A DNA stretch of 64,000 nucleotides from Acidobacteriota bacterium (GTDB taxonomy: Bacteria; Acidobacteriota; UBA890). A model generated the notes under the pieces. The model did no database searches. It worked only from the letters and a program-made list of their open reading frames with translations, and was not told where the DNA came from. Both the position numbers and the translations under genes were made by a program. Positions 319-19,100 of this stretch are shown here, piece after piece. The first letter of the stretch is position 1. The number at the start of each line of letters is the position of its first letter. The stretch is from positions 2,512,741 to 2,576,740 of the forward strand of contig OZ244217.1 in the NCBI GenBank assembly GCA_965216935.1, read 5' to 3'.

Positions 319-1854
319 ATGAGAACACCGAAGCGGTTCTGCGAGTTCCGAATCCGACTCTCCCAGGGCTCGGCCTTCGCCATGTACAACGGCGAGCTGA
401 ATATCCCGGGTGTTCGACACGGACCGCCCACGGACCGGATCGAGTTGGTCAACGAGGGTCTGCGCAAGGATGCGATCGAGGTCCTCAGCAACCTCGTCCA
501 CCGCGAGGGGGCGGGCCGAGAAGAGATCACCCTGCTGGGAGACTTCCTCTACGACCTGCTGTTCCAGGGCGAGATCCGCGACCAGTTCCTCAAGACCTAC
601 GAGGCCGTAACCGCGGACGAGGACTGCGTGCTGCGGCTCGTCCTGGAGTTCAAGGGGGGCGAGGATTTCTCCGAGCTTCCGTGGGAGTACCTGCACCTGA
701 CCGACCTCAACGTGTTTGCCGCGGCCGTCTCGCCGATGGTCCTTTCGCGTCACGTCGAGCTCAAGAAGGAGCTGAAGGAGCCCGACGCCCCCGATCAGCT
801 GCGGCTCCTGGCGGTGGTTTCGAACCCCTCCAACGCCCGCGCTCCGGTCATTGCCGCTCCGATCGTCGACAAGATCCGGAAGATGTCCGAGGCGCATCGG
901 CTCGACGTCCGTTTGTTGGAGCAGCCCACCCGCAAGTCCTTCGAGGAGGCGTTCCGGGATCGCGACTGGCGTCCACAGATCCTGCACTTCTTCGGCCACG
1001 GTCAGTTCGATCCCGTTCGCGGCGGTTCGCTGGCGCTGTGCAAGCCGATGTCGGAGCGAGAGGACTGGCTGCCCGATGACGACCTGGTCGACATCCTCGG
1101 CGAGCGGCGGCGTCTCCGCCTGGTCGTGCTGCAGTCGTGCGAGGGAGCCGCGGGCAACGAGTTCAGCGGCGTGGCGAACAAGCTGGTGCGTGCGGCGGTG
1201 CCCGCGGTTGTTGCGATGCGCTACGAGATCGACAACGATTCGGCCACTTGCTTCGCCGAGACCTTCTATCGCCGTTTGGACGAGGGCTGGCCGATCGATT
1301 CGGCGGTGCAGGCCGGCCGCGAGGCGCTGGTGCGCCTGTCCGACGATGCGCGTCGGTTCAGCGACCGCCGCTTCGGTACCCCCGTTCTCTTCCTCCAGAG
1401 CCGCGACTACCAGACCGATCATCGCCTGATCCGGCCGAGCGAGGAAGGCGCGCAGGGCGCCGAAGCAAGCGGCGCTTCCGCCCGGGATCAGGCGCCGCGC
1501 GCCGTGCACGTCAGCTGTCCCTATTGCGGCAACCGCAGCTCGGTGATCCCCGGACGTAGTGTCTACTACTGCTCCAACGACAGTTGTCGGAGCAAGTACC
1601 GCTTCTGCCCGTCGTGCGGCGACGAAGTCATCCCGTCTGCCGAGGAGCACTGCGACGAGTGCCTGCGCCTGCGTGTCACCGCCGCGGCGGCGGGGCAGGC
1701 CGATCCCGATCGCGGAGAGCGCGGCGTGACGCCCGCGGCGGCTCGAGCTCCGCACGCGCCGGCGGACGACAGGGCGGCCCAGCCGGCCGGCGCGGCGGGC
1801 GACCGGCTCTACGTCGTCCGCGGGCAGGACCGGAGGGATCCGGCCGATGGCTGA
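319..1854 (+). CDS. CHAT-domain (caspase-like) cysteine protease with C-terminal double zinc ribbon
   Basis: Track ORF 304..1854; start set at ATG 319 (ATG 382 also possible). His/Cys dyad in CHAT-type context (ILHFFGHGQF ... LVVLQSCEGA). C-terminal cysteine pairs CPYC / CSNDSC / CPSC / CDEC. No signal peptide or TM segment. G/C-rich third codon positions. Confidence 0.85.
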   Translation: MRTPKRFCEFRIRLSQGSAFAMYNGELNIPGVRHGPPTDRIELVNEGLRKDAIEVLSNLVHREGAGREEITLLGDFLYDLLFQGEIRDQFLKTYEAVTADEDCVLRLVLEFKGGEDFSELPWEYLHLTDLNVFAAAVSPMVLSRHVELKKELKEPDAPDQLRLLAVVSNPSNARAPVIAAPIVDKIRKMSEAHRLDVRLLEQPTRKSFEEAFRDRDWRPQILHFFGHGQFDPVRGGSLALCKPMSEREDWLPDDDLVDILGERRRLRLVVLQSCEGAAGNEFSGVANKLVRAAVPAVVAMRYEIDNDSATCFAETFYRRLDEGWPIDSAVQAGREALVRLSDDARRFSDRRFGTPVLFLQSRDYQTDHRLIRPSEEGAQGAEASGASARDQAPRAVHVSCPYCGNRSSVIPGRSVYYCSNDSCRSKYRFCPSCGDEVIPSAEEHCDECLRLRVTAAAAGQADPDRGERGVTPAAARAPHAPADDRAAQPAGAAGDRLYVVRGQDRRDPADG

Positions 1855-4630
1855 TCCGCCCGACGTAGTGGCCTTGCAGCGCCGTGCGGCGATCGCCGAC
1901 GCCTATCGGGATGCAGCGCTGGCGACCGCGGACATGACGAAGGTCACAGCGGATCTCGTCGGGCTGCAGCAGAAGATCGACGAGGCGGAGCACTTTCTCG
2001 ATACCGGCGAGATGCTCGCCGACCTGGTCGGCGCGGCGTGGGCGCGCCCGGAGCTCGATGCCTTTCGGACGCTTCGTGCTCGTCTCCTGCGCGACTACAC
2101 CCACGCCGAAAGACAGCGGCTGCAGGATTCGGCGTTCGCCACGCCCCGTGCCCGCTGGGAAGAGTTCGTTCGCTCGTTCGCCCGTTGCGTCTCCGCCTGG
2201 AAGCTGGAGGTGTGCGCCGCGCTGGCGACCGTGGACCTGGGCGAGGGCGCGGCCGAAGGGCCACTGGACATGTTTCGTGAACGGGTCGAGTACCTGGTCA
2301 AGGAGCGCTGGGCCGAGGGATACCCGATCTTCGAGTACCTCGCCGAGGCCGACGAGGTGCCGCCCCGGGACCGCGGCCGGATCAACGCGCTGTGCGCGGC
2401 GGTGCAGATCTACTTCTTCGAATCGCCCGACAAGGCCCTGGAGCTCCTGAGCCGGGCCGAGGAGCTGGCTCCGGAGGAATCGATCGTCTACGAGGTCCGC
2501 GGCGATCTTTACATTCATCAGTCGAAGCTCGACGAGGCGAGAGTCCAGCTCGATCGCGCCATGGCCTTGAAGCCGGGCAGCGCCGGTGCGCTCGCCTCGA
2601 TGGGCGACCTGGCGGACAAGGGCGATACCCCCGAGTCGGCCGAGTCCTGGTATCGGGAGGCGATTCGACACCGTCCGGGCAGCTCCACGGGCTACACCCG
2701 CATGTGCCGCTTCCTCGGCCGTCCGGACGTCCCGGAAGAGAAGGCCGCCGAGATCTCCGAGCTGGTGGCGCGCTCGGTGTCGGTCGATCCGCTCGGAGAG
2801 CACACCACGTATCTGTCCGCCGGCTGGGCGTACCAGAGTCGCGACGAAACAGAGGTCGCCCGGGAGTGGTTCGATCGCGCCATCGCCAACGACCCGCTTC
2901 GTCCGGACGGGCACGCGGCGCTCGGCCACCTGCTGCTTGGCAGCGGCGCGATCGACGAGGCGCGCGAAGCGTTCGAGCGAGCCATCGAGGTGGCGCCCGA
3001 GTCGCTGGACGGGCACTGGGGACTCGCCCTGCTGGAAGAGCAGGAAGCGAACTGGGCGGCCGCCGAGGCGAGCTTCCGCAGGTCGCTGCAGGCCCGGCCG
3101 GAGTGGGGCGGGGCGATCATCGCGCGGGCGGCCTACGCGGCGTTTCGACAGGGGGACCGCGAGGCGGCGGTAGAGGAGATCGTCACCGCGCTGATGGCGG
3201 ATCCCGACAACGAGATGCTGCGGTCGTATGCCGAACGCATCGCCGACGAGACCGAAAGCGAGTTCGGCGATCTCGAGGGCGCCGACGCGGTCTACGATGC
3301 GATCGCCGGGGTGCTCGGCGACACGTATTCCGAGCGGCACGGCGAGCGCATCGCCGCATTGCGCGTGTCCGCCGCTCTGCGCAAGAACCGCGAGGCGAAC
3401 GCCCTGTACTCGGCGGGCGACTACAGCGGCTCGATCCCGCTGTACGAGGAGGCCATCGAGCTCGACTTCCACGATCCGGTGTATCACGCCAACCTTTCGT
3501 CCGCCTGGGAGCTTGCCGAGGACGTGCCGGTCGTCGACCGTCTCGACCGCGCGATCGAGTGCCTCGATCGGGCGGCGGCGATGGCCAACGACCCGGACGA
3601 GTACCGCACCCGCCAGCTCCACCTACAGACCATGCGCGAGAGCGCCGCGGTGTACGGCGAGGCGATCAGCAGGTTGCCCGTGGTGACCCCCATCGCCCTG
3701 GAGGTGGGAAACACGATCGTGCCGATGGTGGAGGGCGAAGGCGCAGATCTCGCTCCGCTCGCGCAGGAGCTCATCGAACAGATGCGGGAGAGGGTGCGGG
3801 AAGGCTTCGGCGTGAAGGTCCCCGGGATCCGGATCCGCGTCCGCGAGGGAGCGTCCGACCCGGGTGAGTTCGTCATCCTGCTGATGGAAGTACCGCTCTT
3901 GCTGGGCTCGATCCGCGATGTTCCGCTCGAAGATGATCCGGACGCCTACGAGCGCCACGCCCTCGAGCACATGCTCGGCACGCTCGAGGGGCTCCTCGAG
4001 CGGAACCTCGGTGCCTTTCTCGGAATCGAGGCGCTGGACTCCCTGCTGTGGCAGGAGGCGTCGGAATGGCGCGAGAAGTGGGTCGGCGACACGGACGAGC
4101 TGAGTCGCTTGGAGCGCGTCTTCCGGGCGATGCTCGCGGAGGGCGTGGGAATCCGCCCGATCGGCCCGATCTGCGAGCGCTACGCCGAGCTCCGCCAGAG
4201 CGCCGTGCCGGCGCACGAGATCGTCGAGCGACTGCGCGCCTTGCCGGAGGTGCGCGAGCACCTTCCCGGTGCCGAGGGACATTCCTTCTTCGCCGTGAGC
4301 GACGCGTTTCTCGACGTATTCGAGCGTTCGATCAACACCGCCGACGGACATCCTCTGCTGGCGATGCTGCCGGAGGACTGCCAGGCGACCCTCACCGCGG
4401 TGCGCAACACGGTGACCGGCGAGCGCCCGGAGGCGCTGATCGTCCACCGCCCGGTCTTGCGGCCGTTCGTGCGGCGGCTGCTGGAGTTGGAGTTCCCGAC
4501 CCTGCCGGTGCTGGCGGCAAGCGAGCTGGCGGACGCGGAGGCGGCCGTTGTCGACACCGTCCGAATGGACGGCGAGGACAAAGCCCCTGCCGCGACCGAT
4601 CGGCAGCTCGGGACCGGAGGCGAGGGATGA
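1847..4630 (+). CDS. TPR-repeat protein fused to a soluble FlhA/SctV-like cytoplasmic domain (FlhAc-like)
   Basis: ATG 1847 overlaps the CHAT stop by 8 nt (ATGGCTGA). The middle ~400 aa are TPR-like helical repeats (e.g. EANALYSAGDYSGSIPLYEEAIELD). The C-terminal ~310 aa (approx 3670-4600) match conserved FlhAc blocks: IALEVGNTIVPMVEG, GFGVKVPGIRIRVREG..GEFVILLMEVP, FRAMLAEGVGIRPIGPICERYAEL, HRPVLRPFVRRLLELEFPTLPVLAASEL. No TM export-gate region. Confidence 0.85.
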   Translation: MADPPDVVALQRRAAIADAYRDAALATADMTKVTADLVGLQQKIDEAEHFLDTGEMLADLVGAAWARPELDAFRTLRARLLRDYTHAERQRLQDSAFATPRARWEEFVRSFARCVSAWKLEVCAALATVDLGEGAAEGPLDMFRERVEYLVKERWAEGYPIFEYLAEADEVPPRDRGRINALCAAVQIYFFESPDKALELLSRAEELAPEESIVYEVRGDLYIHQSKLDEARVQLDRAMALKPGSAGALASMGDLADKGDTPESAESWYREAIRHRPGSSTGYTRMCRFLGRPDVPEEKAAEISELVARSVSVDPLGEHTTYLSAGWAYQSRDETEVAREWFDRAIANDPLRPDGHAALGHLLLGSGAIDEAREAFERAIEVAPESLDGHWGLALLEEQEANWAAAEASFRRSLQARPEWGGAIIARAAYAAFRQGDREAAVEEIVTALMADPDNEMLRSYAERIADETESEFGDLEGADAVYDAIAGVLGDTYSERHGERIAALRVSAALRKNREANALYSAGDYSGSIPLYEEAIELDFHDPVYHANLSSAWELAEDVPVVDRLDRAIECLDRAAAMANDPDEYRTRQLHLQTMRESAAVYGEAISRLPVVTPIALEVGNTIVPMVEGEGADLAPLAQELIEQMRERVREGFGVKVPGIRIRVREGASDPGEFVILLMEVPLLLGSIRDVPLEDDPDAYERHALEHMLGTLEGLLERNLGAFLGIEALDSLLWQEASEWREKWVGDTDELSRLERVFRAMLAEGVGIRPIGPICERYAELRQSAVPAHEIVERLRALPEVREHLPGAEGHSFFAVSDAFLDVFERSINTADGHPLLAMLPEDCQATLTAVRNTVTGERPEALIVHRPVLRPFVRRLLELEFPTLPVLAASELADAEAAVVDTVRMDGEDKAPAATDRQLGTGGEG

Positions 4631-6255
4631 GCGCCAAGGTGAAGCTGCCCGTCGCCCTGCACATGGGCGAGACCTTGCCGGTCGATCCGGACGGCGTTCG
4701 GGCAGCGATCGAGGGCTACGCCGAAACCTTGCTGGACAGCCTGGAGATCCCGGCCGAAGTGACGGTCGAGCTGGTCTCGGGTCCCCTCGAAGATCTTCCT
4801 TCCGGCGACGCGTCCTTCATCACCGGCCGCGAGGCGTCGGGCCTGACGCGGCACGACGAGGACGGCCGGCTCACCGCCGAGAGCGCCGCCCAGCTCGGCG
4901 CGATGGCCGTGTGCGACGGGCGCTGTCAGCTGGTGACGGCCGCGGTCGTCGACGCCGTGTGGAAGGGCTGGACCGGTGGGGAGTCCGGCGACGCCCCGGC
5001 CGGGCTGGCGGAGGCGTTGCGAGACGCCGTCCGCTACGGCGTCTCGCTCGAGAAGGTTCGCGCCGCCTGGGAGGGGTCGGCCGATCCCGACAACGTCGAC
5101 ACGTTCCGCGTCGCCGTCGACCGAGCCCTGGATGCCCGCGGCAAACCGTTGGCGCGCCTGGCCATGGGCCGCGAACTGTACGCCCGCTGCTTCGATCCGG
5201 CCACCGACGAGCCGCTGCAGCCGGAGGGCGAAGACGATCCGCTGGACGTCATACAGTCGAACATGGTCGACGGGCTCTTCTACTCGCTCGGCATGATCGT
5301 CGAGGTGGAGATCGAGCCCGATGGTGGGCTCGAGCCCTTCGGGTTCTCCACGTCCTTCTACGACCTGCCCGGTCCGCCGATGTCGAACCTCGCCGAGGGG
5401 GAATTCCTGGTCAACGAGATTCCCTCGCGGCTGAACATGCTCCACATCGAGGCGCGGGCGGTGGTCAACCCCGCCAACGGGTCGGAGAACGCCGTTGTTT
5501 CCAGTGCGCGCGACGCGGAGGCATGCCGCGAAGTCGGCGGGTACACCACATGGGGCCAGGCTTCGTACGCGGTCCTCTGCGCGTCCGCGCACGTCCGCCG
5601 CAACGCCGCGGCGTTCATCGACGGTCGATTCGCCCGCCTGTATCTGGCACGGCTGGGGAGTGCCTTTCCGACCCTCGTGCGCGCGATCGACGAGCGGTTC
5701 GACCGTGGATTGATCACCGGGGTGCTGCGTGGCCTCATTGAGGAAGAGATCTCGATCCGCGATGCGCGCGGCATCATGGAGGGGCTGCTGGCGGTGCAAG
5801 GTGTCAGCTCGGTCGATCACGGCCGTTACATCGTGTTCGATCCGTTCACCGAGCGTCGCTGCCCGGTGCCCGCGGGCAGGACACTGGAGGACCTGAGGGC
5901 GCCCGAGTACGCCGAAGCGGCCCGCGGCGCCCTGCGCGATTTCATCTCCCACAAGCACACGCAGGGGGCGAGCTCGCTGCTCTGTTTTCTGGTCGACCCG
6001 GCGATCGAGGCCGAGCTGCAGCAGCCCGAGCCGCTCACACCTTCCCGTCGCCGGGAGATCATCCGAGCCGTATACGAGGAGGCCGGAGGGCGGCCGGGCT
6101 GGTCCAGCCAGCCGGTCATCCTGACGACCGTGTCGGCGCGCAAGCGCATGCGCCGCCTGGTCGAGGCCGAGTTTCCCGAGCTACCCGTGCTGTCGTACCA
6201 GGAGCTTCGACCGGACATGAACATCCAGCCGATCGCCCGCATCAGCGTCGATTGA
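4627..6255 (+). CDS. Stand-alone FlhA/SctV cytoplasmic-domain-like protein (second FlhAc paralogue)
   Basis: ATG 4627 overlaps the upstream stop (ATGA). The upstream part of track ORF 4048..6255 is an Arg-rich out-of-context extension. FlhAc-like blocks: LPVALHMGETLPVD, ITGVLRGLIEEEISIRDARGIMEGLLAV, ARKRMRRLVEAEFPELPVLSYQELRPDMNIQPIARISV. No TM segment. Confidence 0.8.
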   Translation: MSAKVKLPVALHMGETLPVDPDGVRAAIEGYAETLLDSLEIPAEVTVELVSGPLEDLPSGDASFITGREASGLTRHDEDGRLTAESAAQLGAMAVCDGRCQLVTAAVVDAVWKGWTGGESGDAPAGLAEALRDAVRYGVSLEKVRAAWEGSADPDNVDTFRVAVDRALDARGKPLARLAMGRELYARCFDPATDEPLQPEGEDDPLDVIQSNMVDGLFYSLGMIVEVEIEPDGGLEPFGFSTSFYDLPGPPMSNLAEGEFLVNEIPSRLNMLHIEARAVVNPANGSENAVVSSARDAEACREVGGYTTWGQASYAVLCASAHVRRNAAAFIDGRFARLYLARLGSAFPTLVRAIDERFDRGLITGVLRGLIEEEISIRDARGIMEGLLAVQGVSSVDHGRYIVFDPFTERRCPVPAGRTLEDLRAPEYAEAARGALRDFISHKHTQGASSLLCFLVDPAIEAELQQPEPLTPSRRREIIRAVYEEAGGRPGWSSQPVILTTVSARKRMRRLVEAEFPELPVLSYQELRPDMNIQPIARISVD

Positions 6256-6319
6256 TCGGCGATGGCGTCGCACGGCCGCTCCGGCGGGCGGCGACGTCCA
6301 CCAACCCGAGCACGAACCG

Positions 6320-7714
6320 ATGACGATCGAACCCGTTCCCGGCACTCCCTTCGACTACTACCTGGTCTCCTACGACAAGCACGGGCGTGAGTACAACGAT
6401 CCCGAGGGCATGAACGGCCTCATGTCCCTGCGCATCGAGCGGGACATCGCCGATCACGGCATCACCGACGTGTTCTTGCTGTCGCACGGCTGGAAGGGCG
6501 ACGTTCCTGCGGCCAAGTCGCAATACGAGGCGTGGATCAAGGCGATGGCCGATTGCGGCGAGGACGTCGAGAAGGTCCGCGCACAGCGACCGGGCTTCAA
6601 ACCGTTGATTATCGGATTTCACTGGCCCAGCTTGCCGTGGGGCGACGAGTCCTACGGCGGGATTTCGTTCGCGGCGGGCGGTGCAGACGCCGGCCCGCCG
6701 GTGAGCGAGCCCGAGGATCCCGTCAGGGCGCAGATCGATGCGGCGGCCGAGAGCATTGCCGATTCTGCCGCGGCGCGCCAGGCATTGGAAACGATCTTCG
6801 CCGCCGCGCTCGACGACATCGCCCCGGACAACCTGCCGCCTGCGGTCGTTTCGGCCTACGAGACGCTGGCCGCCGAGGCCGGGCTCGAAACGGGCGGGGA
6901 TCTGGGGGCGGCCCCGGGTGACGACGTGGCGGCGTTCGATCCCGAGGCGTCGTATCAAACGATGCTCGAGCTCGAGGAGGACATCTACTACGGCGACTCG
7001 TCGATCGGCGGAGGCATCCTCGGCGGACTGCGCCAGCTGTCCTTCTGGAAGATGAAGAAGCGGGCCCGATCGATCGGCGAGTCGAGCGCCGCGACGTTGA
7101 TCCGACGCCTGCAAGAGATCGGCACCGACGGCCCGGGTGGTGACAACGTGCGGTTCCACCTGATGGGTCACAGCTTCGGCTGTATCGTCGTGTCCGCGGC
7201 GATCGCCGGCCGCGACGGCGACGAGCCTTTGGTGCGACCGATCGACTCCGTGCTGCTGGCGCAGGGGGCGCTGTCGCTGTGGGCGTACTGCAGCGATATT
7301 CCGGTCGCGCCGGGCAAGCCGGGGTACTTCTCCTCGATCGTCGCCGGCGGGAAGGTCGCCGGCCCGCTGGTGACGACGCAATCCATGCACGACACCGCCG
7401 TCGGTGTGCTGTACCCGCTCGCGGCCGGCGCCGCCTTCCTCGCCGCCGACGCCGTCGCCTTCGACTTCGACCCCACCCGGCCGCCCAAGTACGGGGCCCT
7501 CGGCACGTATGGCATCCAGGGGCCGGGCGTCGACCTCGATCGCCGGACCATGGGCCCGGTCGATACCGATTACGAGTTCGTTGGCGGACGGGCATACAAC
7601 GTCGAGGGCAGCGGCGTGATCAACGAGGGCGGCGGCGCCTCCGGGGCGCACAACGACATCGCCAAGCCCGAGGTAGGGCACGCATTCTGGAGCGCGATTC
7701 TGGCCGCTCCCTGA
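6320..7714 (+). CDS. Alpha/beta-fold serine hydrolase (lipase/esterase-like), cytoplasmic
   Basis: Track ORF 6320..7714. GxSxG nucleophile elbow (HLMGHSFGCIVV), an early HG motif (FLLSHGWKGD), and candidate Asp (SMHDTA) and His (GAHNDI). No signal peptide. Lies 64 nt downstream of the FlhAc-like gene on the same strand. Confidence 0.8.
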   Translation: MTIEPVPGTPFDYYLVSYDKHGREYNDPEGMNGLMSLRIERDIADHGITDVFLLSHGWKGDVPAAKSQYEAWIKAMADCGEDVEKVRAQRPGFKPLIIGFHWPSLPWGDESYGGISFAAGGADAGPPVSEPEDPVRAQIDAAAESIADSAAARQALETIFAAALDDIAPDNLPPAVVSAYETLAAEAGLETGGDLGAAPGDDVAAFDPEASYQTMLELEEDIYYGDSSIGGGILGGLRQLSFWKMKKRARSIGESSAATLIRRLQEIGTDGPGGDNVRFHLMGHSFGCIVVSAAIAGRDGDEPLVRPIDSVLLAQGALSLWAYCSDIPVAPGKPGYFSSIVAGGKVAGPLVTTQSMHDTAVGVLYPLAAGAAFLAADAVAFDFDPTRPPKYGALGTYGIQGPGVDLDRRTMGPVDTDYEFVGGRAYNVEGSGVINEGGGASGAHNDIAKPEVGHAFWSAILAAP

Positions 7715-7987
7715 GCCCGGCGTGAGTCGCTCCCTTGACGGTTGTCCCGGCGGCGTGGTCCGATCGGGTCTCCGGCGTTCGTGATTGCGGCGCCCCCGCA
7801 CGGGTAGCTTCCGATTCGGGCGTCGTTGTCGATCGCGAGGCCGGATTACATGGGGACCGCTTCGGTGTGAGCGCGCTTTCGGGTGCGATCCGGCCGGCGG
7901 TCCCTTTTCGATGGGCGAGGTTGCACGGCACCAGCGTCGCCGGAACCCCGGGAGGATCCCGGGTGGGGACCGGAAAGGACTCGTCGT

Positions 7988-9178
7988 ATGGCCCGCAAGC
8001 GCAAAGGCAAGAAACGCAGGACGGCGAAGCGCACGGCATCGTCCGGCCCCGCCGCCCCGATGACCGACGCGCAGCTCAAGCGGAAGGTCAAGGCCCGCCC
8101 GGCCCGCAAGAAACCGAAGAAGTTGGTGATCCGACACGACATCATGGTGGCCGGAACCGACACCCGGCTTCGACACAAGTCCACCGGGAGGTCGAAGTCG
8201 CTCATCGCCCGGCCGCTCGCGAAGGTGCGCTCGGGGCGGGGCATCGATGTGCAGATCGAGATCGCCGGGGCGGAGCTCGGGACGCGCGTTTTCCGTCCGC
8301 CGATCGAAGGCAAGCGGGTCAGGGTGCCGAAGATCACCGCGGCGCGGCGCGCCGAGGCCCGGCAGGGGCTGCCCGCGCTGGACGGGTTTCTACCCGACCA
8401 CCTTCCGCTGCAACCCGTGCCGCCGAAGCTCGAGGCCGCCCTGCGAGTCCCGAGCTTCATCAAGACCGTCGGTCGTATCGGCAAGACGCAACGTCGGGCG
8501 ACGACGGTGTTCGATCCCGAAGATCGTTACACGTTCTCCGACACGGCCTTTCCGTGGTGCACGGTGGGCCGCGTGGACACCGCCGGCGGCTGGGCCAGCG
8601 GTGTGCTCATCGGCCCCCGGCACATGCTCACCGTCAGCCACGCCATTGTCTGGGGGGCGGGGAACAGTGCCGGGTGGGTGCGTTTCCGGCCGTCGTATTT
8701 CGACGGCAACGCGCCGTTCGGCGAGGCGTGGGGGACGCGCTGGTACGCCTTCAAGAAGGTCGTTGGTCCCGGCATCGATCTGGACGAAGGGCGGCAGGAC
8801 TACGTCGTCATCGTGCTCGATCGTCGTATCGGCGACACCTGCGGCTGGATGGGATCGCGGACCTATTCGGAGTCCTGGGACGGCGGCAACTTCTGGCGCC
8901 ACATCGGCTACCCGGGGGACATGGCCGGCGGACTGCGTCCGTCCTACGAGCGCGACATCTCGCTCGATGGGCGCAACACCTCGAGTCACCGGGAGCTCTG
9001 GCACCAGGGTGACGTCTGGCCGGGGCAATCGGGCGGACCGTTCTTCGCCTGGTGGGCCGGCGAGGACTGGCCGCGTGTCGTCAGCGTGCAGTCCTGGGAA
9101 AACAGCCAACGCAACGGAGCCTCCGGCGGCAGCCGCATGGTCGACTTGATCATCACCGCGCGCAACGATCATCCCTGA
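7988..9178 (+). CDS. Trypsin-like (S1, V8/glutamyl-endopeptidase-like) serine protease with very basic ~170-aa N-terminal extension
   Basis: In frame with track ORF 7883..9178. ATG 7988 is preceded by GAAAGGA. His (LTVSHAIV), Asp (DYVVIVLD) and Ser (GQSGGPFF) triad motifs. N-terminus MARKRKGKKRRTAKR... No signal peptide. Confidence 0.8.
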   Translation: MARKRKGKKRRTAKRTASSGPAAPMTDAQLKRKVKARPARKKPKKLVIRHDIMVAGTDTRLRHKSTGRSKSLIARPLAKVRSGRGIDVQIEIAGAELGTRVFRPPIEGKRVRVPKITAARRAEARQGLPALDGFLPDHLPLQPVPPKLEAALRVPSFIKTVGRIGKTQRRATTVFDPEDRYTFSDTAFPWCTVGRVDTAGGWASGVLIGPRHMLTVSHAIVWGAGNSAGWVRFRPSYFDGNAPFGEAWGTRWYAFKKVVGPGIDLDEGRQDYVVIVLDRRIGDTCGWMGSRTYSESWDGGNFWRHIGYPGDMAGGLRPSYERDISLDGRNTSSHRELWHQGDVWPGQSGGPFFAWWAGEDWPRVVSVQSWENSQRNGASGGSRMVDLIITARNDHP

Positions 9179-9194: not shown

Positions 9195-9240
9195 CCGGCG
9201 GGGAGACGAGTTCTCGTTTCCCCGCCGGCGGTTTTCTTGC
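9195..9240 (+). terminator. Rho-independent terminator after the trypsin-like gene
   Basis: 15-bp stem CCGGCGGGGAGACGA / TCGTTTCCCCGCCGG (one G-U pair), loop GTTC, followed by the T-rich CGGTTTTCTTGC. It starts 17 nt after the stop at 9178. Confidence 0.65.
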
Positions 9241-11290: not shown

Positions 11291-11380
11291 TGCGCGATGC
11301 TCCTAGGTCCCCAAGAGTTCGCGATGAGAGCCGGCTGCCCAGGGTCTCGCGGGAGATCCGAAGCACCCTGCTGCATCTTG

Positions 11381-11467
11381 GATATACCGTGGCGCGGCGA
11401 GTGTCCAGGGGAGCGGGCTGCCGCCGGCCCCGGATCCCTGGACACCCTCTCGCCGTTTGCCCATAAT
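11381..11467. promoter_or_regulatory. Divergent sigma70-like promoters sharing a 10-bp perfect inverted repeat (S41 <-> S8 intergenic)
   Basis: Inverted repeat GTGTCCAGGG (11401-11410) / CCCTGGACAC (11436-11445). Plus strand: TGGACA (11439-11444) - 17 nt - CATAAT (11462-11467), about 90 nt upstream of the S8 ATG. Minus strand: TGGACA (11407-11402) - 15 nt - TATATC (11386-11381), facing the S41 gene. Confidence 0.4.
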
Positions 11468-11554
11468 GGCGCCACCCGGGCCGGCGGCCCGGCCCGGTTG
11501 GGGACCCGGAACGACGCGCCCGCTTGCCGCGCACACGACAGGTCCGCGAACCGC

Positions 11555-13639
11555 ATGGCTGATCGTCGCGATTTCTTCGAGAATCTCGTCTACCAGACGG
11601 TGGATCGGCGGCGGTTCACGCAGCAATCGCCCGTGATGCCGGACGTCTGGATCCACTACGGCATGAATCCGGGCGAGCAGCAGCATCTGCTGATGGTCCC
11701 GGACTGGCACTACACGCCCGCGGCCCTGACCGGCGGGATCAAAGAGCGGCTGTCCGGGGACCGCGATAACGCCCGTCTGAGGCGCTTCCGGCTGGTCCCG
11801 CGCAACCCGGAGCCGGCCGCGGTGGCGCACAACCAGAGCGCGGTGGTGGCCACGCTGTGGTTCGACCAGCTCATCCGCGCCGTGCTTCCTTTGAGCGGCT
11901 GGTGGCGGGACGCCATCGCCGGCACACGTTCGCGTCGCGACAGGGATCGGCTGCACCTCGCCCTCGAAAACAAGGGCGCGCTGGTCACGTCGCTGGTGAC
12001 GGCATGGGGCGGCGACGACGCGAGGAAGGGGGCGGGTCCGGCTCGCCGCGGCGGAGCCCGTAGCGCCGGAGGCGAGCATGATGATGCCGGCGGCAGGCTT
12101 GCCGGAGGTCTCCCGCTCAGCGCCGACGTCCTCTGGCTCACCCGCGTGGCCGGCTTGCTCGCCTTCATCGCGACGAAAGCGCAGCGCGACCGCTTCGGCA
12201 AGCTGCGCAGCGAGAACAGCAAGGTCGAGCTTCTGCAGGGCTTGCTGGAAAAGAAGAACCACCGCAAGCTCGCCGGCGCGCTCGTCGACATCCTGACCGA
12301 GTCGGCGCCGGCGTACCCCGGCGACAACTATCCGCTGTATTCCGTCAACCGGAACCGTGAGACCTCTACCAGCCTGCGGGACTCGGTTGCGGCGGTGAAG
12401 GCCGACGCATCCAACCGGGTGTTCCAGGTCCGCGGCGAGGGCATCCGCTGGGCGGTGATCGACTCGGGCGTCGACGCGCGGCACGTCGCCTTCCGCCGCC
12501 GCAACGCCGACGGCGTGCCGCGGCGGCAGCCCTTCAGCCGGCCGCGACGACGGCGTCGGGCCGCGGCGGGCAGCACGCCGGGCGCCGAGGGCTTCTTCGT
12601 CAACGACACCCGGGTCGTGGCGACCTACGACTTCGTGCACATTCGCGAGTTGCTCGGCACCGAGCCGGAAGAGGTCGATGCGCTCCCGGAGGAGCGATTC
12701 CCGGCGCTCGCCCTCCCCGGAATGCGGCAGAAGCTTCGCGAGCTGATCGAGGACTACCACACCGGCGTCATCGACTGGCAGCGGCTGCAGCCGTTCCTCG
12801 AGATCCGCCACACGCCGAAGGCGTACCGGCCGCCGGTCGATCGCCACGGCACCCACGTCGCCGGGATCATCGGGGCGGACTGGCGTACGAGCGACGAAGA
12901 GGTCGACCTGCCGGGGCCGCGCCGGGAAATGACCGGCATGTGCCCCGAGATCGAGCTGTACGACCTGCGGGTGCTGGGTGATGACGGCACCGGAAACGAG
13001 TTCGCCATCATGTCGGCGATGCAGTTCGTTCGGGCGCTGAACACCGAGAAGGACTTCATGGCGGTTCACGGGGTCAACTTGAGCCTGTCGATCCCGCACG
13101 ACGTGGCGAACTACGCCTGCGGACGAACCCCGGTGTGCGAGGAGGCCGAGCGCCTGGTCGGCAACGGTATTCTGACGGTCGCCGCCGCCGGCAACAGCGG
13201 ACGGGCGCGCTACCTGACGCCCTCCAACGAGATCGACGACGGATTTCGCACCGTCAGCATCACCGATCCGGGCAACGCCGAGTCGGTGGTCACCGTCGGG
13301 GCAACCCACCGGCGGGATCCCCATACGTACGGGGTGAGCTATTTCTCCAGCCGCGGACCCACCGGGGACGGCCGCCTGAAACCCGACCTGGTCGCACCCG
13401 GGGAGAAGATTCGCTCGACCGTTCCCGACGATCGCGACGATCGCCTGGACGGCACCAGCATGGCCGCGCCCCATGTGAGCGGCGCGGCGGCGCTGATCAT
13501 GACGCGCCATCGGGAGGTGATCGGGCAACCCGGCAAGATCAAGGAGATCCTCTGCCGATCGGCGACCGACCTGGGCCGCGAGCCCTACTTCCAGGGGGCC
13601 GGAATGCTCGACATCTTGCGGGCGCTACAGGAGATCTGA
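11555..13639 (+). CDS. S8 subtilisin-family serine peptidase with ~330-aa non-catalytic N-terminal region, no signal peptide
   Basis: In frame with track ORF 10727..13639, whose upstream part is antisense to the S41 gene; start at ATG 11555. Asp (WAVIDSGVDARH), His (HGTHVAGIIGA) and Ser (GTSMAAPHVSGAAALI) triad. Confidence 0.85.
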   Translation: MADRRDFFENLVYQTVDRRRFTQQSPVMPDVWIHYGMNPGEQQHLLMVPDWHYTPAALTGGIKERLSGDRDNARLRRFRLVPRNPEPAAVAHNQSAVVATLWFDQLIRAVLPLSGWWRDAIAGTRSRRDRDRLHLALENKGALVTSLVTAWGGDDARKGAGPARRGGARSAGGEHDDAGGRLAGGLPLSADVLWLTRVAGLLAFIATKAQRDRFGKLRSENSKVELLQGLLEKKNHRKLAGALVDILTESAPAYPGDNYPLYSVNRNRETSTSLRDSVAAVKADASNRVFQVRGEGIRWAVIDSGVDARHVAFRRRNADGVPRRQPFSRPRRRRRAAAGSTPGAEGFFVNDTRVVATYDFVHIRELLGTEPEEVDALPEERFPALALPGMRQKLRELIEDYHTGVIDWQRLQPFLEIRHTPKAYRPPVDRHGTHVAGIIGADWRTSDEEVDLPGPRREMTGMCPEIELYDLRVLGDDGTGNEFAIMSAMQFVRALNTEKDFMAVHGVNLSLSIPHDVANYACGRTPVCEEAERLVGNGILTVAAAGNSGRARYLTPSNEIDDGFRTVSITDPGNAESVVTVGATHRRDPHTYGVSYFSSRGPTGDGRLKPDLVAPGEKIRSTVPDDRDDRLDGTSMAAPHVSGAAALIMTRHREVIGQPGKIKEILCRSATDLGREPYFQGAGMLDILRALQEI

Positions 13640-13642
13640 AAC

Positions 13643-14851
13643 ATGGCGACGGTGTTTACGCTGGAAGCCGTATTCGCGCGCAAGGGCGACGCGCTGCTGC
13701 TCCACTACGGGCCGTGGGAAGGCCCCGACTGGATCCTCGTCGATGGCGGGCCGCCGGGAGTCTACAAGAAGTTCCTGCAGCCACGGCTCGAGCAGCTCCG
13801 CGACGAGTTCGAGATTCAGGCCGACGACCCGATTCCCTTCGAGATGGTCATGGTCAGCCACATCGACGACGATCACATCGCCGGCGTGATCGACCTGTTC
13901 GAGGACATCGACGACGCCAAGACGAGCAATCAGCCGGCGCCGTATCGGGTCGAGAAGCTGTGGAACAACACCTTCGACGATCTTCTCGACAACGACGAGG
14001 AGGAGATCGTCTCGCGTATGGCCGCGACGGCGGCGTCGTCCAGCGCCGCCAACGGGTTGCCGCTGCCGAACATGACGCGTGAATCCCGCGCGGTGGTGGC
14101 GACCACCAGGCAGGGGCGAGACCTGCGAAACCTGGCCAAGAAGCTGCAGGCGAAGGTCAACGATCCCTTCGAGGGTCTGATCATGGCCCCGGCTTCGGCG
14201 GCAATCGCCTTCGATCACGGCCTGACCTTCACGGTGATCGGTCCGCTCGAGCATCGGGTACGTGCCCTTCAGGTGCAGTGGGACAAGGACGTGAAGAAGA
14301 TCCTCGAGGACGAGGCGAACGCCGGTCAGTCCGCCGCCTTCGGCGACACGTCGCCGTTCAACCTGGCGAGCATCTGCGTCCTCGCCGAGATGCAGGGCAA
14401 GTCGATGCTGCTGACCGGCGATGCGCGCGGCGACTTCATCATCGAGGGGCTGGAGGAGGTCGGGCTGCTGCAGGATGGCGACACGTTCCACGTCGACGTG
14501 TTGAAGATGCCTCACCACGGCAGCGACGAGAACGTCGAGGTGTCGTTTTTCGAGCGCGTCACGGCCGATCACTACCTCATTTCGGGCAATGGCGACCACG
14601 GGAATCCCGAGAAGACCACGCTCGAGATGATCGAAGAAGCCCGCGGGACGGACGAGTACACCGTTCACTTCACCTTCACCGAAAGCGCACACCTGACGGA
14701 CACCAGCCAGAAGCGACGAAAGGCGCTGAAGAAGATCACCGACTGGGTGGCGCAGAAGCCGGACAACTGCTCGGTCGTGTTCCAGGACGACGACGACGAG
14801 GTCCAGTCGGTGTACGTGGATCTGCTGGACCCGCTTTTCGAGGAGGAGTAG
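13643..14851 (+). CDS. Metallo-beta-lactamase-fold hydrolase, ComEC/Rec2-type MBL domain
   Basis: Track ORF 13643..14851, beginning 3 nt after the S8 stop. Motifs ILVDGGP, VVSHIDDDHIAG (HxDxDH variant) and VLKMPHHGSDEN, as in ComEC-like MBL domains. No signal peptide. Confidence 0.85.
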   Translation: MATVFTLEAVFARKGDALLLHYGPWEGPDWILVDGGPPGVYKKFLQPRLEQLRDEFEIQADDPIPFEMVMVSHIDDDHIAGVIDLFEDIDDAKTSNQPAPYRVEKLWNNTFDDLLDNDEEEIVSRMAATAASSSAANGLPLPNMTRESRAVVATTRQGRDLRNLAKKLQAKVNDPFEGLIMAPASAAIAFDHGLTFTVIGPLEHRVRALQVQWDKDVKKILEDEANAGQSAAFGDTSPFNLASICVLAEMQGKSMLLTGDARGDFIIEGLEEVGLLQDGDTFHVDVLKMPHHGSDENVEVSFFERVTADHYLISGNGDHGNPEKTTLEMIEEARGTDEYTVHFTFTESAHLTDTSQKRRKALKKITDWVAQKPDNCSVVFQDDDDEVQSVYVDLLDPLFEEE

Positions 14852-14985
14852 ACAGGGGGCCACGGGGATGTGGCGCGAGCGGAGTGACACACGGAGGACC
14901 GGGCGTGGTCCGATCAGACTGACACCGGAGGAGGCGGGGATTCGGGGGCGTGGCCCGCGAGGAGTCACACAAGGAGGAGAGTTTC

Positions 14986-16143
14986 ATGAGCGAGAATGGC
15001 CCTGATGTCGATCCCCGGGTTGCCTCCCCGGTCGACCCGGACAGTGCCGAGAAAGCCCCCAAGCTGCAGGACGGAATCGCCCTGTGCCTGTCGGGGGGTG
15101 GCTATCGGGCGATGCTGTTTCACCTCGGCACGTTGTGGCGGTTGAACGACGTCGGCTATCTGCCGCGCCTCGATCGAGTGTCGAGCGTCTCGGGAGGATC
15201 GATCACCGCCGGGGCCCTGGCGATGAGCTGGGGAAAGCTGAAGTTCGCCGGCACCGGTCGGGCGTCGAATTTCGTCGGCGAGGTTGTTCGCCCGATTCGC
15301 TCGCTCGCGAACCGGACGATCGACGTTGGTTCGGTGATCAGCGGGGCGCTTCTTCCCGGGTCGATCAACGACAAGGTCGAGGGGAAGTACCGTCGGCACC
15401 TGTTCGGCGACACCACCTTGCAAGACCTGCCGGACACGCCGCGGTTCGTGTTCAACGCGACGAACGTGCAGTCGGCGGTGCTGTGGCGATTCTCCAAGCC
15501 CTACATGGGTGACTATCGGGTCGGGCGGGTCGTGAGCCCGACCCTGGGGCTGGCGCAGGTGGTGGCGGCGTCCTCGGCCTTCCCGCCGGTGTTGTCGCCC
15601 GCCGAGCTCGATCTCGATCCGGGCTCGTTCACCTCCGGAACCGACTTGAAGGACCCGGCGTTCCGCCACGAGGTCGTTCTCAGCGACGGCGGCGTGTACG
15701 ACAACCTCGGCCTCGAGACCGCCTTCAAGCGTTACCAGACGTTGCTGGTGAGCGACGCCGGGGGCCGGATCGCTCCCGACGACGATCCACCGCGGGACTG
15801 GGCCCGGCATATGGTGCGCATCCTCGCCATCGTCGACCACCAGGTGCGCAACCTGCGAAAGCGGCAGCTCGTCGGCGCGTTTCGTGCCGATGTGCGCTCC
15901 GGTGCCTATTGGGGCATCCGAACGCCGATCCGCAAGTACTCGGCGAAGCACAAGCTGCACGTCCGCGACGACCGATCCTCCGAGCTCGCGCTGGTGCCGA
16001 CGCGCTTGAAGCGCCTTGAGGCCGGCCTGCAGGAGCGACTGATCAACTGGGGGTATGCGATCACAGACGCGGCGATGCGCACCTGGGTCGATACCGACCT
16101 GAAGCCGCCGAAGAGCTTCCCGTACCCGAAGGTGGGCGTGTGA
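14986..16143 (+). CDS. Patatin-like phospholipase
   Basis: In frame with track ORF 14950..16143. ATG 14986 is preceded by AAGGAGGAG. Motifs: LSGGGYRAM (oxyanion), VSGGSI (GxSxG Ser), SDGGVYDNLG (DGG Asp). Confidence 0.9.
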   Translation: MSENGPDVDPRVASPVDPDSAEKAPKLQDGIALCLSGGGYRAMLFHLGTLWRLNDVGYLPRLDRVSSVSGGSITAGALAMSWGKLKFAGTGRASNFVGEVVRPIRSLANRTIDVGSVISGALLPGSINDKVEGKYRRHLFGDTTLQDLPDTPRFVFNATNVQSAVLWRFSKPYMGDYRVGRVVSPTLGLAQVVAASSAFPPVLSPAELDLDPGSFTSGTDLKDPAFRHEVVLSDGGVYDNLGLETAFKRYQTLLVSDAGGRIAPDDDPPRDWARHMVRILAIVDHQVRNLRKRQLVGAFRADVRSGAYWGIRTPIRKYSAKHKLHVRDDRSSELALVPTRLKRLEAGLQERLINWGYAITDAAMRTWVDTDLKPPKSFPYPKVGV

Positions 16144-16153
16144 GCGATCCTTC

Positions 16154-19100
16154 ATGCCGCTGACCTTCAAGAAGAACAAGAGCCTGCTGACCGGCCCGGG
16201 ACAGCGGCGCGGGCTACCGCCCGTCGACCTGGAGCTCGAGGCGACGGCCGACAACGATCCGGCGACCGCCGACGCCTTGTTGCGCAACGATCCCTTCCCG
16301 AAGCTTCCGCTCAGGCTCGGCCGGGCGTCGGTCAAGGTCGATGCCGACGAGGAGGTCTCGTTCGGAAACGGCAAGGCGAAGACGAGCTTCTCCGCCGGCG
16401 TCGGCGTGTTCGCCGAGCTGGGCGTGTTCATGACCTCGAAGGCGGCGTTCAAGGCGGCGGCGATCAACGGAGCGATGTTGCCGGCGTTGTCCGTCGAGCG
16501 GGCCGAGACGGCGGAAGGCGCCGACGGGGGTGGGGCGGGCGGAGAGGCGGGCGGAGAAGCGGGCGGAGAAGCGGGCGGAGAGGCGGGCGGAGAAGCGGGC
16601 GGAGAGGCGGGCGGAGAGGCGGGCGGAGAGGCGGGCGGGGGGCCCCGGAAACTTGTCTACGCCGTGATGCAATCGGGGTACTCGCTCGCGGCCGAGGTCG
16701 ACGCGTCGATCGCTCTGGCTCCGGGATTCGTCCCCAGTCTGGAGACCTCGGCCGGCCGCTCGCGCGATTTCGCCGTGATCCGGGCTGTCGACGCGGAGGC
16801 CGGCTCCCGGGACGTCGTCCAGGATTTGCTGGACTCTTGGCGGCTGCCGCGCCAGGTGAACGAGGCATCCGACCTCGAGCCCGGCACGTGGATCGTCGCC
16901 GAGGTCGACGGCTCGTTCGCGCTCGGCCTCGAGGCGCGATACGGCTACACGTACAACTGGGTGAAAGCGGCGCGCCTGGGTGGCCTCTCCGGCGATATCG
17001 GCCTGAAGATCGAGCTCGGGGCCGCCGCGTCTCTGGGGTTCTCGGCCAGCGGCAAGTACGCCCTGGTGATCGGTCGTGCGTCCATGCAGCAAGACGACGA
17101 GCGACTCCGCGTGCGCCTGCATCGCCTGCAGCAGAGTGGGTGGAACTTCGCCTTCGACGCCTCGGCCGGCTTCACCGGTGACACGAGCGGCTTCTTGCCG
17201 GAGGAGTACGACAAGCTCGTGGCTGCGGTCTTCGGGCTCGACCCCGGCCAGCTCGTCGACGACCTCCGTCGCTGGACCGATCCGGCCAACGCCCTCCCCG
17301 ACCTGATTGCCGGGGAGAGCATCGACCTGGCGCACGAGGTGCTCACCGATCTCACCGGAATCGACGCGAAGGCGGAGTTCGCTCGGGCGCAGAAGAAGCT
17401 GCGTGAGCTGCTGGATCGCTGGGACGGTCTTCCGGGCGAGGTCGCCTCGCGCATCTGGGAGACGTTGCCGCACGCCGACGAGATCGAGCGCGTCGCCGAG
17501 GTCGCCCGGCAGATTGCCGAGGCGGATTCCAACGCGGCGAAGGCCCGGGTGATGGAGCTGATCGAGAAGCTCCTGGAGGAGATCGACTTCTTCGACACGC
17601 CGGTCGGCAAGTGGGTGCTTGCCGTGGCGATGAACCGGCCGCTGGAGCTGCTCGCCGCAGGGGTCGACTCCGAGCGCTTCAAGGAGTTCCAGGCGATCGC
17701 CGCCAGGACGGCTGCGATTCTCGACGGTTCCGAGGTCGCGGCAATGCTCGGCAAGTTCCACGCGCTGGTGTCCGAGAGGCTGCGGATCGACCTGCTTCGC
17801 GACCTCAACAAACGCGAGTTCGATGAGCTCGACGACTGGATGAAGGCGAAGCTGAGCCAGTTCATCGGCCGCAAGATCGACTTCTCCGAAATCGACAAGG
17901 TGCGCCGTGCGATCAAGGTCATGGACGACAACGCCGCCGCCTTCTACGAGAAGACGATCGCCGCACTGAACCGCAAGTACGAGCTCGCCTTCGCCTACAG
18001 GTTCCAGAGCGCGACGACGAAGACCGCCCTGATCGACGTGACCCTGGATTTCGCGGAGGGCAATCTGGGCGCTGCGCTGCGGCGGATGATCGCGGGAGAT
18101 TTCGACACGCTGCTTACCCGGCCGCAGAAGGGGATCACGCTCCACGTCGGCGCGCTGACCCACGGGATCGAGCGCCGGACGTCGGTCGATCTGACCATGC
18201 CGTGGATCAAGAAGAGCACCGTTTCGCGCTCCGAGGCGGTGGCCGAGCTCGACGTCGTGGACGAGGATGACGGTCGCCTGTTGATGTACGCCGGTGCGGC
18301 GAGCAACAAGGTTACCGAGGTAACGACCGTGGGCGCCGCCCAGTCGTACCGGGTCAGCGCGTTCGCCGTCGCTGCTCGACTTCCGGTGATGGTCGGCGGT
18401 GCGGCGAGGCGATCTGCTGGGGCGTCGGGTGGGACATCGAGTGGAGCTTCGAGTGGGGCGCTGACCGGCGCGTCGGGTTCGGCGGTCGGTGGAGGGTCGG
18501 GTACGGGGCCCTCGCGTGGCCTGCGGGTACATGGCGGGAGCTCGTTGGAGGCCTCCTATACGTACGCGGTGGCCGCTCCCGAGATGGTCATCGAGGACTT
18601 CATCAGCCACTTCGGCCCCTACGTTCGGGCTTACTTTCCGCGTCAGTTCGACAACGACGAAGCCCCCCGCTTCGGGGTCTGGGCGACGGAGCTCGACCGC
18701 AGGATCGACGCCGACCCGGACACTGCGAACGGGCCGCGCCTGTTCGGCGACACGCTCGTGCGGCTGGCGGTGGCGCTGCCGCCGGATACCGGCTCCGTCT
18801 GGTTCGAGGGGCCGACCCGGAAGACGGCTCCCGCGTACCGGGCGATGTCGCTGCGGATTCAGCAGGCCATGCGCGATCTGCTGACCTTCTACTACTTCGC
18901 CGACCCGCGGAACTTCCGCAACCGACTCGCCGCCCACGCCCTGCTGATGTACGCGGCGACCCCTCCGGCGAACGGCCTGAGGCTCGAGGGCGACAAGATC
19001 AAGAAGACCACTCACGCGATTCACTGGGATTGGCCGAACAACAAGCTACGTCGCGCGGTCTTGAACAGCAGTGCTACCGCCGAGCGCCTCGCCGCCGCCT

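Follow-up and report, generated by a model that had tools for sequence, protein, structure and literature searches.

A coupled CHAT protease and a pair of soluble SctVc-derived proteins from an Acidobacteriota bacterium as a candidate conflict system

What might a caspase-like protease have to do with the export gate of type III secretion? The question is raised by three adjoining genes (the trio, positions 319 to 6255) in a stretch of 64,000 nucleotides from an Acidobacteriota bacterium (GenBank assembly GCA_965216935.1, contig OZ244217.1), which was analysed as a whole and is referred to here as the window. Gene 1 encodes a CHAT protease, while genes 2 and 3 encode two soluble versions, A and B, of FlhA's and SctV's cytoplasmic domain (FlhAc/SctVc). 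The trio is rated here as a real, undescribed variant among caspase, TIR and STAND conflict systems, carrying a scaffold that had not been tied to them earlier within the searchable literature. Moreover, we lean towards regarding it as a member of a widespread family of multi-gene conflict systems, serving immunity or programmed cell death, that has apparently gone undescribed and the core of which would be a heteromeric, soluble, SctVc-derived pair.

The trio and its export-gate domains

The window had a G+C content of 67%, and three open reading frames (ORFs) with a strong coding signal ran along the + strand from 319 to 6255, the G+C content at third codon positions (GC3) being 0.85-0.87 in genes 1 and 2. 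The three genes are translationally coupled. Gene 1 ended (TGA) and gene 2 began (ATG, 1847) within ATGGCTGA at 1847-1854, gene 2 likewise ended (TGA) and gene 3 began (ATG) within ATGA at 4627-4630, and GGAGG-type Shine-Dalgarno motifs appeared 7-10 nt 5′ of the starts of genes 2 and 3, each within the preceding gene. The first-pass annotation of the sequence had described three same-strand genes with overlapping stop and start codons and products devoid of transmembrane segments or signal peptides. The ORFs and overlaps read as claimed, and no membrane helix or signal peptide was evident in the trio proteins, the highest 19-residue Kyte-Doolittle mean being 1.6. The features of the trio were the following, with SD1 to SD4 denoting the subdomains into which the cytoplasmic domain in FlhA/SctV is divided:

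319..1854, + strand: gene 1, 511 amino acids (aa), CHAT (caspase-like, clan CD) protease
1830..1854, + strand: junction of genes 1 and 2, GGAGGG Shine-Dalgarno motif in gene 1 and ATGGCTGA start/stop overlap, by direct sequence reading
1847..4630, + strand: gene 2 (A), 927 aa, helical/TPR solenoid fused to an SctV/FlhA-type cytoplasmic domain without SD2
4612..4630, + strand: junction of genes 2 and 3, GGAGG Shine-Dalgarno motif in gene 2 and ATGA start/stop overlap, by direct sequence reading
4627..6255, + strand: gene 3 (B), 542 aa, free SctV/FlhA-type cytoplasmic domain with SD1-SD4 all present

Gene 1 comprised an N-terminal region of ~75 aa, a CHAT domain (nt 547-1347) and a low-complexity C-terminal tail, with a GTG at 304 as an alternative start. 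The CHAT His-Cys dyad and the C-terminal double zinc ribbon that had been annotated in it were both recovered. The Pfam CHAT family (PF12770) was matched at 8e-24 over aa 77-343 (85 bits, cutoff 24), with the catalytic dyad formed by His227 in HFFGHG (nt 997-999) and Cys274 in LQSCEG (nt 1138-1140), while the zinc ribbon (nt 1495-1662) contained eight cysteines in four pairs (C400/403, 418/423, 430/433 and 445/448). The dyad was kept in all 11 of the CHAT proteins found in trios, which were alike across loci (E-values of 1e-30 to 1e-129).

Gene 2 was divided into an N-terminal helical region (nt 1847-2416), a TPR superhelix (nt 2417-3670) and the FlhAc domain (nt 3671-4579). TPR families of Pfam were matched with E-values of up to 1e-24, and the AlphaFold model (pLDDT 82.5) showed a continuous, all-alpha solenoid spanning aa ~7-608, longer than the TPR-like stretch of ~400 aa proposed before, followed by an alpha/beta domain. 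The full model returned TPR proteins for all its top 50 matches in Foldseek, which was uninformative for the FlhAc part. At the sequence level, the latter was recognized by the FHIPEP family (PF00771) at 2.3e-18, over the gathering score, and the top match of the C-terminal part in PDB was the Chlamydia protein CdsV (1.7e-14). The FlhAc assignment was therefore retained, but not the statement that the domain matches every conserved block: in the alignment, SD1, SD3 and SD4 were present and the ~55-aa SD2 block that other family members retain was missing.

In gene 3, SD1 started at residue 3, the C-terminus was SctV-like (LSYQELRPDMNIQPIARI), and a family-specific helical insertion was found in SD1 (aa ~84-170, nt 4876-5136), appearing in the model as an extra helical bundle. 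Significant matches were obtained to FHIPEP (8e-21), to the SctV model of NCBIfam (1.3e-23) and to CdsV in PDB (1.6e-22). Furthermore, the AlphaFold model (pLDDT 72) was aligned by Foldseek to the cytoplasmic domains of CdsV, YscV, FlhA, InvA, EscV and SsaV, each covered from end to end (E-values of 2e-18 to 2e-13, target TM-score 0.67-0.80), including the solved complexes 6wa9, 7qij, 6ch2 and 6ch3. Gene 3 is thus a second copy of the domain, as first noted, but not the more divergent one, since its mean identity to SctV was 42% compared to 32% for the domain of gene 2.

Overall, the likeness to FlhA/SctV (InvA, YscV/LcrD, MxiA, EscV, CdsV; PF00771) held at the level of sequence, profile and structure, and motifs such as DGLFYELG, NPANG, EEISIRD and the C-terminal LSYQELSPDMNIQPIARI were kept. 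Pfam and NCBIfam assigned the FlhAc parts to the FHIPEP/export-gate family only, a label that misleads in organisms devoid of type III secretion, and the closest membrane-bound relatives of B were SctV proteins of the Myxococcota/Bdellovibrionota type (37-42% identity). However, FlhA/SctV proteins have an eight-helix N-terminal membrane domain and an FHIPEP loop, both absent from the trio family, and the FHIPEP profile matches of genes 2 and 3 were confined to positions ~406-657 of 657. The NCBIfam equivalog cutoffs (TIGR01398/TIGR01399; 772 bits for FlhA and 692 for SctV) were missed by an order of magnitude, with scores of 49 and 47 bits, respectively, for gene 2 and of 62 and 83 bits for gene 3. 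As a separate observation, two full-length membrane-bound SctV-like genes (L003 8001-10160 and L004 2518-4677) were the closest relatives of gene 3; they were adjacent to pyrH/frr, or to TPR genes and alaS, with no obvious type III secretion system (T3SS) operon, and may be orphan export-gate genes.

The A/B pair, its relatives and known systems

An exhaustive search with gene 3, covering 1.84 billion cluster representatives, gave 1792 matches, 405 of them at E ≤ 1e-30. The idea of a rare family, which would follow from the 8 proteins returned by a word-indexed search (the same 8 with a 47-sequence profile), was thus rejected. The SctV membrane domain was found in none of the best 149 representatives (query excluded), which were distributed by length as follows:

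stand-alone B-like, 450-700 aa: 99 representatives
at least 1,200 aa: 24 representatives
700-1,199 aa: 8 representatives
less than 450 aa: 18 representatives

Six of the long representatives with TPR in Pfam had TPR, FlhAc and a second FlhAc in one chain and were fusions of the gene 2 and gene 3 types. A seventh (P0032) combined a DUF4118 membrane sensor domain with two FlhAc domains. Moreover, loci were collected by genome and metagenome scans, seeded with a 10-sequence alignment, and sorted with a purpose-built sequence library, which separated 100 loci with a canonical membrane SctV (mostly from Myxococcota and Bdellovibrionota) from 72 without the membrane domain.

Among the 72 soluble loci, A was placed directly 5′ of B, or fused to it, in every one with enough upstream DNA. 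A and B formed separate monophyletic clades, and their trees were congruent (mirror-tree r = 0.77, reached by 0 of 2000 permutations), as is expected for any two co-inherited operon genes. The two proteins were 20% identical, each being nearer to the membrane SctV than to the other, and their identities to SctV differed between subdomains:

SD1a: A 46%, B 28%
SD2: A 28%, B 48%
SD3: A 18%, B 38%
SD4: A 31%, B 51%

Judged by these sequence identities, A and B retain complementary parts of the ancestor, SD1 in A and SD2-SD4 in B. Such complementary retention is the pattern that would be expected, without being proof of it, if the subunit of a homomeric ring had been duplicated and the copies had specialised on different interfaces. 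The core unit is a co-evolving A/B pair, probably heteromeric, and not a single scaffold with a spare copy.

The partners encoded around this pair are interchangeable, and four types of loci were distinguished:

Type I: CHAT, (helical or zinc-ribbon)-TPR-A and B; 11 distinct loci (the window, L050, L001, L031, L008, L057, L122, L125, L129, L134, L139)
Type II: two caspase C14-EAD2 proteins and a fused TPR-A-B; L051, L136, L140, L146
Type II variant: single caspase C14, with A and B separate; L052
Type III: STAND NTPase (nSTAND1/AAA_16) fused to a third, very divergent FlhAc, a ~930-aa protein, X1-like-A and B; L007, L053, L009, L002, L127, L142
Type IV: TIR-NACHT-FGE-sulfatase, an A of ~1,850 aa and B, at times B-FGS; L055, L144, L145, L148

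The linkage of CHAT, A and B was therefore found in 11 distinct loci of unrelated lineages, with A and B fused in one of them (L134), while very large A proteins (1,500-1,960 aa) appeared in several further loci. The host bins included Smithella (L031) and other Deltaproteobacteria (L057), Verrucomicrobiae, Bacteroidota, Thiodiazotropha, Povalibacter, Acidobacteriota, Anaerolineae, Williamsia and one contig binned as Heimdallarchaeota; of these, Williamsia, Bacteroidota, Anaerolineae and the archaeal bin are hosts without flagella or injectisomes. Several observations were made in passing. The 39-kb contig binned as Candidatus Heimdallarchaeota (L008/L058, JAEOSZ010000007.1) carried a full set of X1, CHAT, TPR-A and B followed by a small TPR protein, which could reflect either horizontal acquisition by an Asgard archaeon or wrong binning. 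In L006 (9070-11035) and L009 (4868-9515), the genes for A, B and the ~930-aa protein were broken over several frames, which suggests frameshifted, decaying copies or assembly errors. B-type proteins with a C-terminal FGE-sulfatase (FGS) domain were encoded in L055 (9761-12409), L145 and L148, and FGS was also present on the adjoining TIR-NACHT protein.

Unlike FlhA/SctV, then, the family presents two diverged paralogues together, fused to TPR, zinc-ribbon, STAND or FGS domains, and its neighbours are caspase-like, TIR and STAND genes, with no other T3SS genes found in the window or the sister loci. A close resemblance was found to the EAD-coupled, NTP-dependent conflict systems known from multicellular prokaryotes (PMC7159879, PMC8195603), with which it shares the repertoire of effectors and adaptors (caspase/CHAT, TIR, EAD2, STAND, FGS and TPR), the modular swapping of effectors round a constant core and the patchy phyletic spread. 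These systems differ in that the constant core of the present family is the soluble FlhAc pair, and the trio has no NTPase, MoxR, vWA or GTPase. Membership of the MoxR-vWA (VMAP)/EAD systems was rejected, as no MoxR, vWA or EAD match was obtained for the window genes; EAD2 was found on caspases of a sister locus (L051). Neither EAD2 nor another adaptor was detected by Pfam at the N-termini of A-type proteins, so no sign of homotypic EAD coupling to the core was obtained.

As is proposed for the trio, the type III-E Craspase (gRAMP/Cas7-11 with TPR-CHAT/Csx29) has a CHAT protease that is run via a TPR module by a separate sensor complex. Its membership was discarded, since TPR (on the FlhAc-fused gene 2) and CHAT are on separate polypeptides here, with no Cas match, no cas gene nearby and no CRISPR-like repeat array within 10 kb of the trio. 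A shared logic is proposed with the apoptosome, the inflammasome, Avs/NLR-like STAND systems and gasdermin-protease operons, in which repeat sensing would lead to a ring, to a proximity-activated caspase-like protease and to executioner cleavage. Apoptosome and Avs-type systems oligomerise via a STAND NTPase, whereas FlhAc is proposed for this role in the CHAT and caspase types. The window was not assigned to the STAND/NLR-like systems (Avs, NACHT, NB-ARC), as genes 1-5 had no NTPase domain, with nSTAND1/AAA_16-FlhAc and TIR-NACHT being found in sister loci, nor to the gasdermin-protease systems, as no gasdermin family was matched by genes 1-5.

The absence of a described system of such composition, suspected from the start, was borne out by both PADLOC and the searchable literature. 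PADLOC-DB v2 contained no system model for the trio; its only matches were weak ones, to the CHAT domain of gene 1 (SAVED_CHAT at 8.5e-14, and BovA) and to the TPR region of gene 2 (PrimPol, 0.0021), while genes 3, 4 and 5 and the FlhAc domain of gene 2 had none. FlhA, FHIPEP, SctV and T3SS do not appear in the text of Kaur, Burroughs, Iyer & Aravind 2020/2021 (PMC7159879, PMC8195603), nor in recent work surveying STAND sensors and hypermutated conflict systems. No description of an FlhAc-type domain tied to caspase-like, STAND or defence/conflict systems was found in the full-text-searchable literature, outside which most subscription papers lie.

Genes beside the trio

The trio is preceded by a divergent gene 5′ of position 319 and heads a same-strand run (319-9178) that continues with two further genes and ends at a hairpin:

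6320..7714, + strand: gene 4, 464 aa, alpha/beta-hydrolase-like protein, 64 nt 3′ of gene 3
7883..9178, + strand: gene 5, trypsin-like serine protease, recognisable by the motifs TVSHA and GQSGGP, its N-terminus very rich in basic residues (KRKGKKRR)
9195..9238, + strand: strong terminator-like hairpin of the intrinsic type, with a 15-bp stem and a T-rich tail, ending the gene run 319-9178

Two weaker hairpin candidates (5965-5983 and 6631-6661) both fell within coding sequence, and only that at 9195-9228 stood after a stop codon.

Gene 4 was 65% identical to its positional counterpart in L050, the most closely related sister locus, compared to 46% for CHAT, 51% for A and 48% for B. It had no match in Pfam, NCBIfam, PADLOC or PDB sequences; however, it looks like an active alpha/beta hydrolase, because the motifs HGW and GHS285FG and the residues D358 and H444 are kept in 17 homologues. 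Homologues were present in Nostoc, Lentzea, Kibdelosporangium, Amycolatopsis, Streptomyces, Variovorax, Lysobacter and others, and 12 of 27 unrelated loci encoded another CHAT protein within a few kb, with FlhAc in none. In the lineage of the window, gene 4 therefore appears to stand in for X1 or X2 (see below) as a module linked to CHAT, probably as a fourth component restricted to this lineage, and it is a candidate executioner or substrate of CHAT. The family as a whole (L093-L119) has invariant HGW, GHSFG, Asp and His together with an FWKMKKRA motif, and recurs with unrelated CHAT proteins, often separated from them by an ORF of ~430-560 aa, in cyanobacteria, actinobacteria, proteobacteria and others; it constitutes a separate CHAT-hydrolase module. 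Gene 5 matched Trypsin_2 of Pfam weakly (5.6e-4). It may be co-transcribed with the trio, but its membership of the system is doubtful because it is not conserved in L050.

In type I loci, one of two proteins is usually encoded directly 5′ of CHAT:

X1, ~360 aa, with HYFQ, PF.VGP and SPDLT motifs: L008 5325-6410, L057 1328-2467, also L122, L125, L129, L134 and L139
X2, ~300 aa: L001 1898-2803, L031 2657-3586

An X1-like domain was also joined to the N-terminus of the A-type FlhAc in two STAND-type loci (L053 and L142). No match to X1 or X2 was found in Pfam or PDB sequences, and profiles of gene 4, X1 and X2 had no match at E ≤ 1-5 among PDB chains including bacterial gasdermins. The candidate executioners beside trio-type CHAT proteins thus belong to families unrelated to gasdermin or without assignment.

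Elsewhere in the window, a Pfam scan of 20 other proteins identified S41, S8, M56 and HtrA-like peptidases, a metallo-beta-lactamase, a patatin, a Met-zincin, transporters, MetY and a GGDEF-HD protein, among others. The MetY-like gene had matches at 69-76% in MAGs of Myxococcales, Polyangiaceae, Caldilineaceae and Gemmatimonadota. No T3SS or flagellar family was found among the 22 other window proteins scanned (these 20 ORFs and genes 4 and 5), and the ORFs of 21 canonical SctV loci matched only genes 2 and 3 in the window, a weak test since those loci may be poor in T3SS genes. Both results agree with the earlier claim that the 64 kb contain no further gene of these systems. Two features are recorded for completeness. 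A packed run of five genes (11303-22405, + strand) encoded an S8 subtilase with 378 unassigned N-terminal residues, a metallo-beta-lactamase-fold protein, a patatin phospholipase, a 1195-aa protein without Pfam match and a Met-zincin (DUF5118/DUF5117/DUF4953), and may be a second hydrolase-rich operon, conflict-like or of secreted enzymes. A 34-nt unit (CCCCCGGGGGGCGTCATCGTGCGGAGATTCATG) was repeated in tandem about five times at 58271-58440, in an intergenic-looking region, and was not CRISPR-like.

Competing explanations and a possible assembly platform

That the trio forms a conflict system had been proposed from its composition alone. The sister loci add to this proposal by pairing FlhAc with caspase-EAD2, TIR-NACHT-FGS and STAND proteins, and EADs, caspases, TIR, STAND and FGS domains are hallmark parts of conflict systems (Kaur et al. 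2020, PMC7159879); the immune role itself stays inferred. Three observations named beforehand as fatal to the proposal were also looked for, namely the lack of significant similarity to FlhAc/SctVc, homologues confined to flagellar or T3SS loci, and trio genes that are not linked elsewhere, and none of them was made. A number of points weigh against this interpretation. To begin with, the association of A with B, the rings and the contact with CHAT rest on analogy, which also holds for the oligomeric state, the trigger, the activation by proximity and the substrates, and the congruence of the A and B trees has the simple expectation given above. SD2 is part of the chaperone-binding site in FlhA, and because gene 2 has no SD2, ligand handling cannot be simply inherited from FlhA. 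Moreover, the association with caspase, TIR and STAND proteins is also compatible with regulated proteolysis outside immunity or with cell death during development. No direct link with phage defence was provided by PADLOC, no homologue was found in a scan of viral contigs, and no defence island is recognisable at the window locus, where the G+C content is uniform, no tRNA or mobile-element gene was seen, and the neighbours are mostly peptidases, hydrolases and housekeeping genes. Finally, the survey of loci is a few dozen from pattern-seeded scans and not a census.

The alternative that survives best, although we consider it unlikely, is regulated proteolysis for the physiology of the cell itself (development, stress signalling or protein quality control), where the TPR-FlhAc pair would be a client-docking adaptor for a HetF-like CHAT protease with no conflict role. 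HetF is a developmental CHAT protease, and it was the top NCBIfam match of gene 1 (7e-20, far under the HetF cutoff). The native G+C content, the housekeeping and peptidase neighbours and the lack of mobile-element signs are consistent with such a role, as is the docking of chaperone-substrate complexes, the ancestral job of FlhAc (PMC8213127). However, the swapping of partners between loci, the patchy spread across phyla and the frameshifted copies (L006 and L009) are typical of conflict systems. In addition, we know of no housekeeping role for the TIR and EAD2 partners.

Alternatively, the soluble FlhAc proteins could be receptors or decoys for foreign T3SS or flagellar-type proteins, or for mimics made by phages or competitors, to which CHAT would respond. 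We regard this as improbable. SD2-SD4 of SctV/FlhA bind chaperones, gatekeepers and the ATPase stalk, and those of B are 38-51% identical to SctV, including the near-identical C-terminal LSYQELSPDMNIQPIARI, which argues for the decoy role; against it, the hosts include lineages for which there is no argument of exposure, the A of the window has no SD2, and nothing in the loci points to a T3SS ligand. Furthermore, to our knowledge the prokaryotic cytoplasm is not a target of T3SS injectisomes.

Still less probable, to a degree that makes it hard to entertain, is a cytoplasmic sorting platform for some as yet unrecognised route of export or assembly, descended from type III secretion as a relic or side branch, where CHAT would act as the processing peptidase. 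The homology to an export-gate domain agrees with it, and so do weak matches between the TPR region of gene 2 and models of class II T3SS chaperones (LcrH/SycD at 1.7e-8, SctY at 0.059); these matches are generic, however, and neither the trio nor the 149 best representatives have a membrane segment or membrane domain, respectively, the window and the sister loci revealed no other T3SS gene, and the hosts of the family include lineages that are not flagellated as well as an archaeal bin. As for chance adjacency or decaying pseudogene fragments of a lost T3SS, which the Myxococcota-type SctV proteins as nearest membrane-bound relatives and the frameshifted sister copies might suggest, it is effectively refuted by the coding signal (intact frames and high GC3) and the conserved linkage, with coupled start/stop overlaps, fusions, an order kept in at least 11 distant loci and 405 representatives at E ≤ 1e-30.

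Under the conflict-system interpretation, a mechanism can be outlined by analogy. FlhAc/SctVc assembles into a nonameric ring and, once off the membrane, into an 18-mer in which two such rings are stacked (PMC8213127). A and B would co-assemble into a similar ring or stacked-ring platform, from which the helical/TPR arm of A would most likely bind trigger or partner proteins. A ligand on this arm would shift the assembly, as between the open and closed states of FlhAc, and CHAT protomers docked on the platform would be brought together and activated. As the catalytic output, CHAT would then cut cellular targets or a co-encoded pro-effector, possibly the gene 4 hydrolase, leading to growth arrest or death of the invaded cell.

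In the first-pass annotation, FlhAc was suggested to replace the usual STAND NTPase as the oligomerisation platform. This may apply to the CHAT and caspase types only, as a STAND NTPase co-occurs with or is fused to the FlhAc proteins in two sister types. The third FlhAc on the STAND protein of type III loci suggests that FlhAc domains also serve as co-assembly adaptors, and therefore that the scaffold works alongside NTPases in part of the systems and without them in the rest. A bolder proposal, which we put forward tentatively and with less confidence than the conflict role as such, is that the A/B pair constitutes an NTPase-independent signalosome scaffold. It would be a domesticated, split export-gate ring, in which the invader is sensed by the repeat arm and caspase-like, TIR or other effectors are activated by induced proximity, and it would define a superfamily of prokaryotic immune or cell-death systems that comprises four or more architectures and over 100 clusters of sequences. 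The scaffold would also dock on STAND NTPases via the third FlhAc.

The split into A and B would offer a natural experiment on the change from a homomeric to a heteromeric ring. If the proposal is true, the best-known ring of type III secretion would have been reused, off the membrane, as an assembly platform for cell death or immunity, doing the job of the STAND ATPases in apoptosomes, inflammasomes and bacterial Avs. It would represent a new class of scaffold for prokaryotic immunity and a second, non-secretory role for a domain whose study has for thirty years been confined to export, and the trio, with or without its fourth gene, would provide a tractable three- or four-gene system for the NTPase-free switching of a caspase-like protease.

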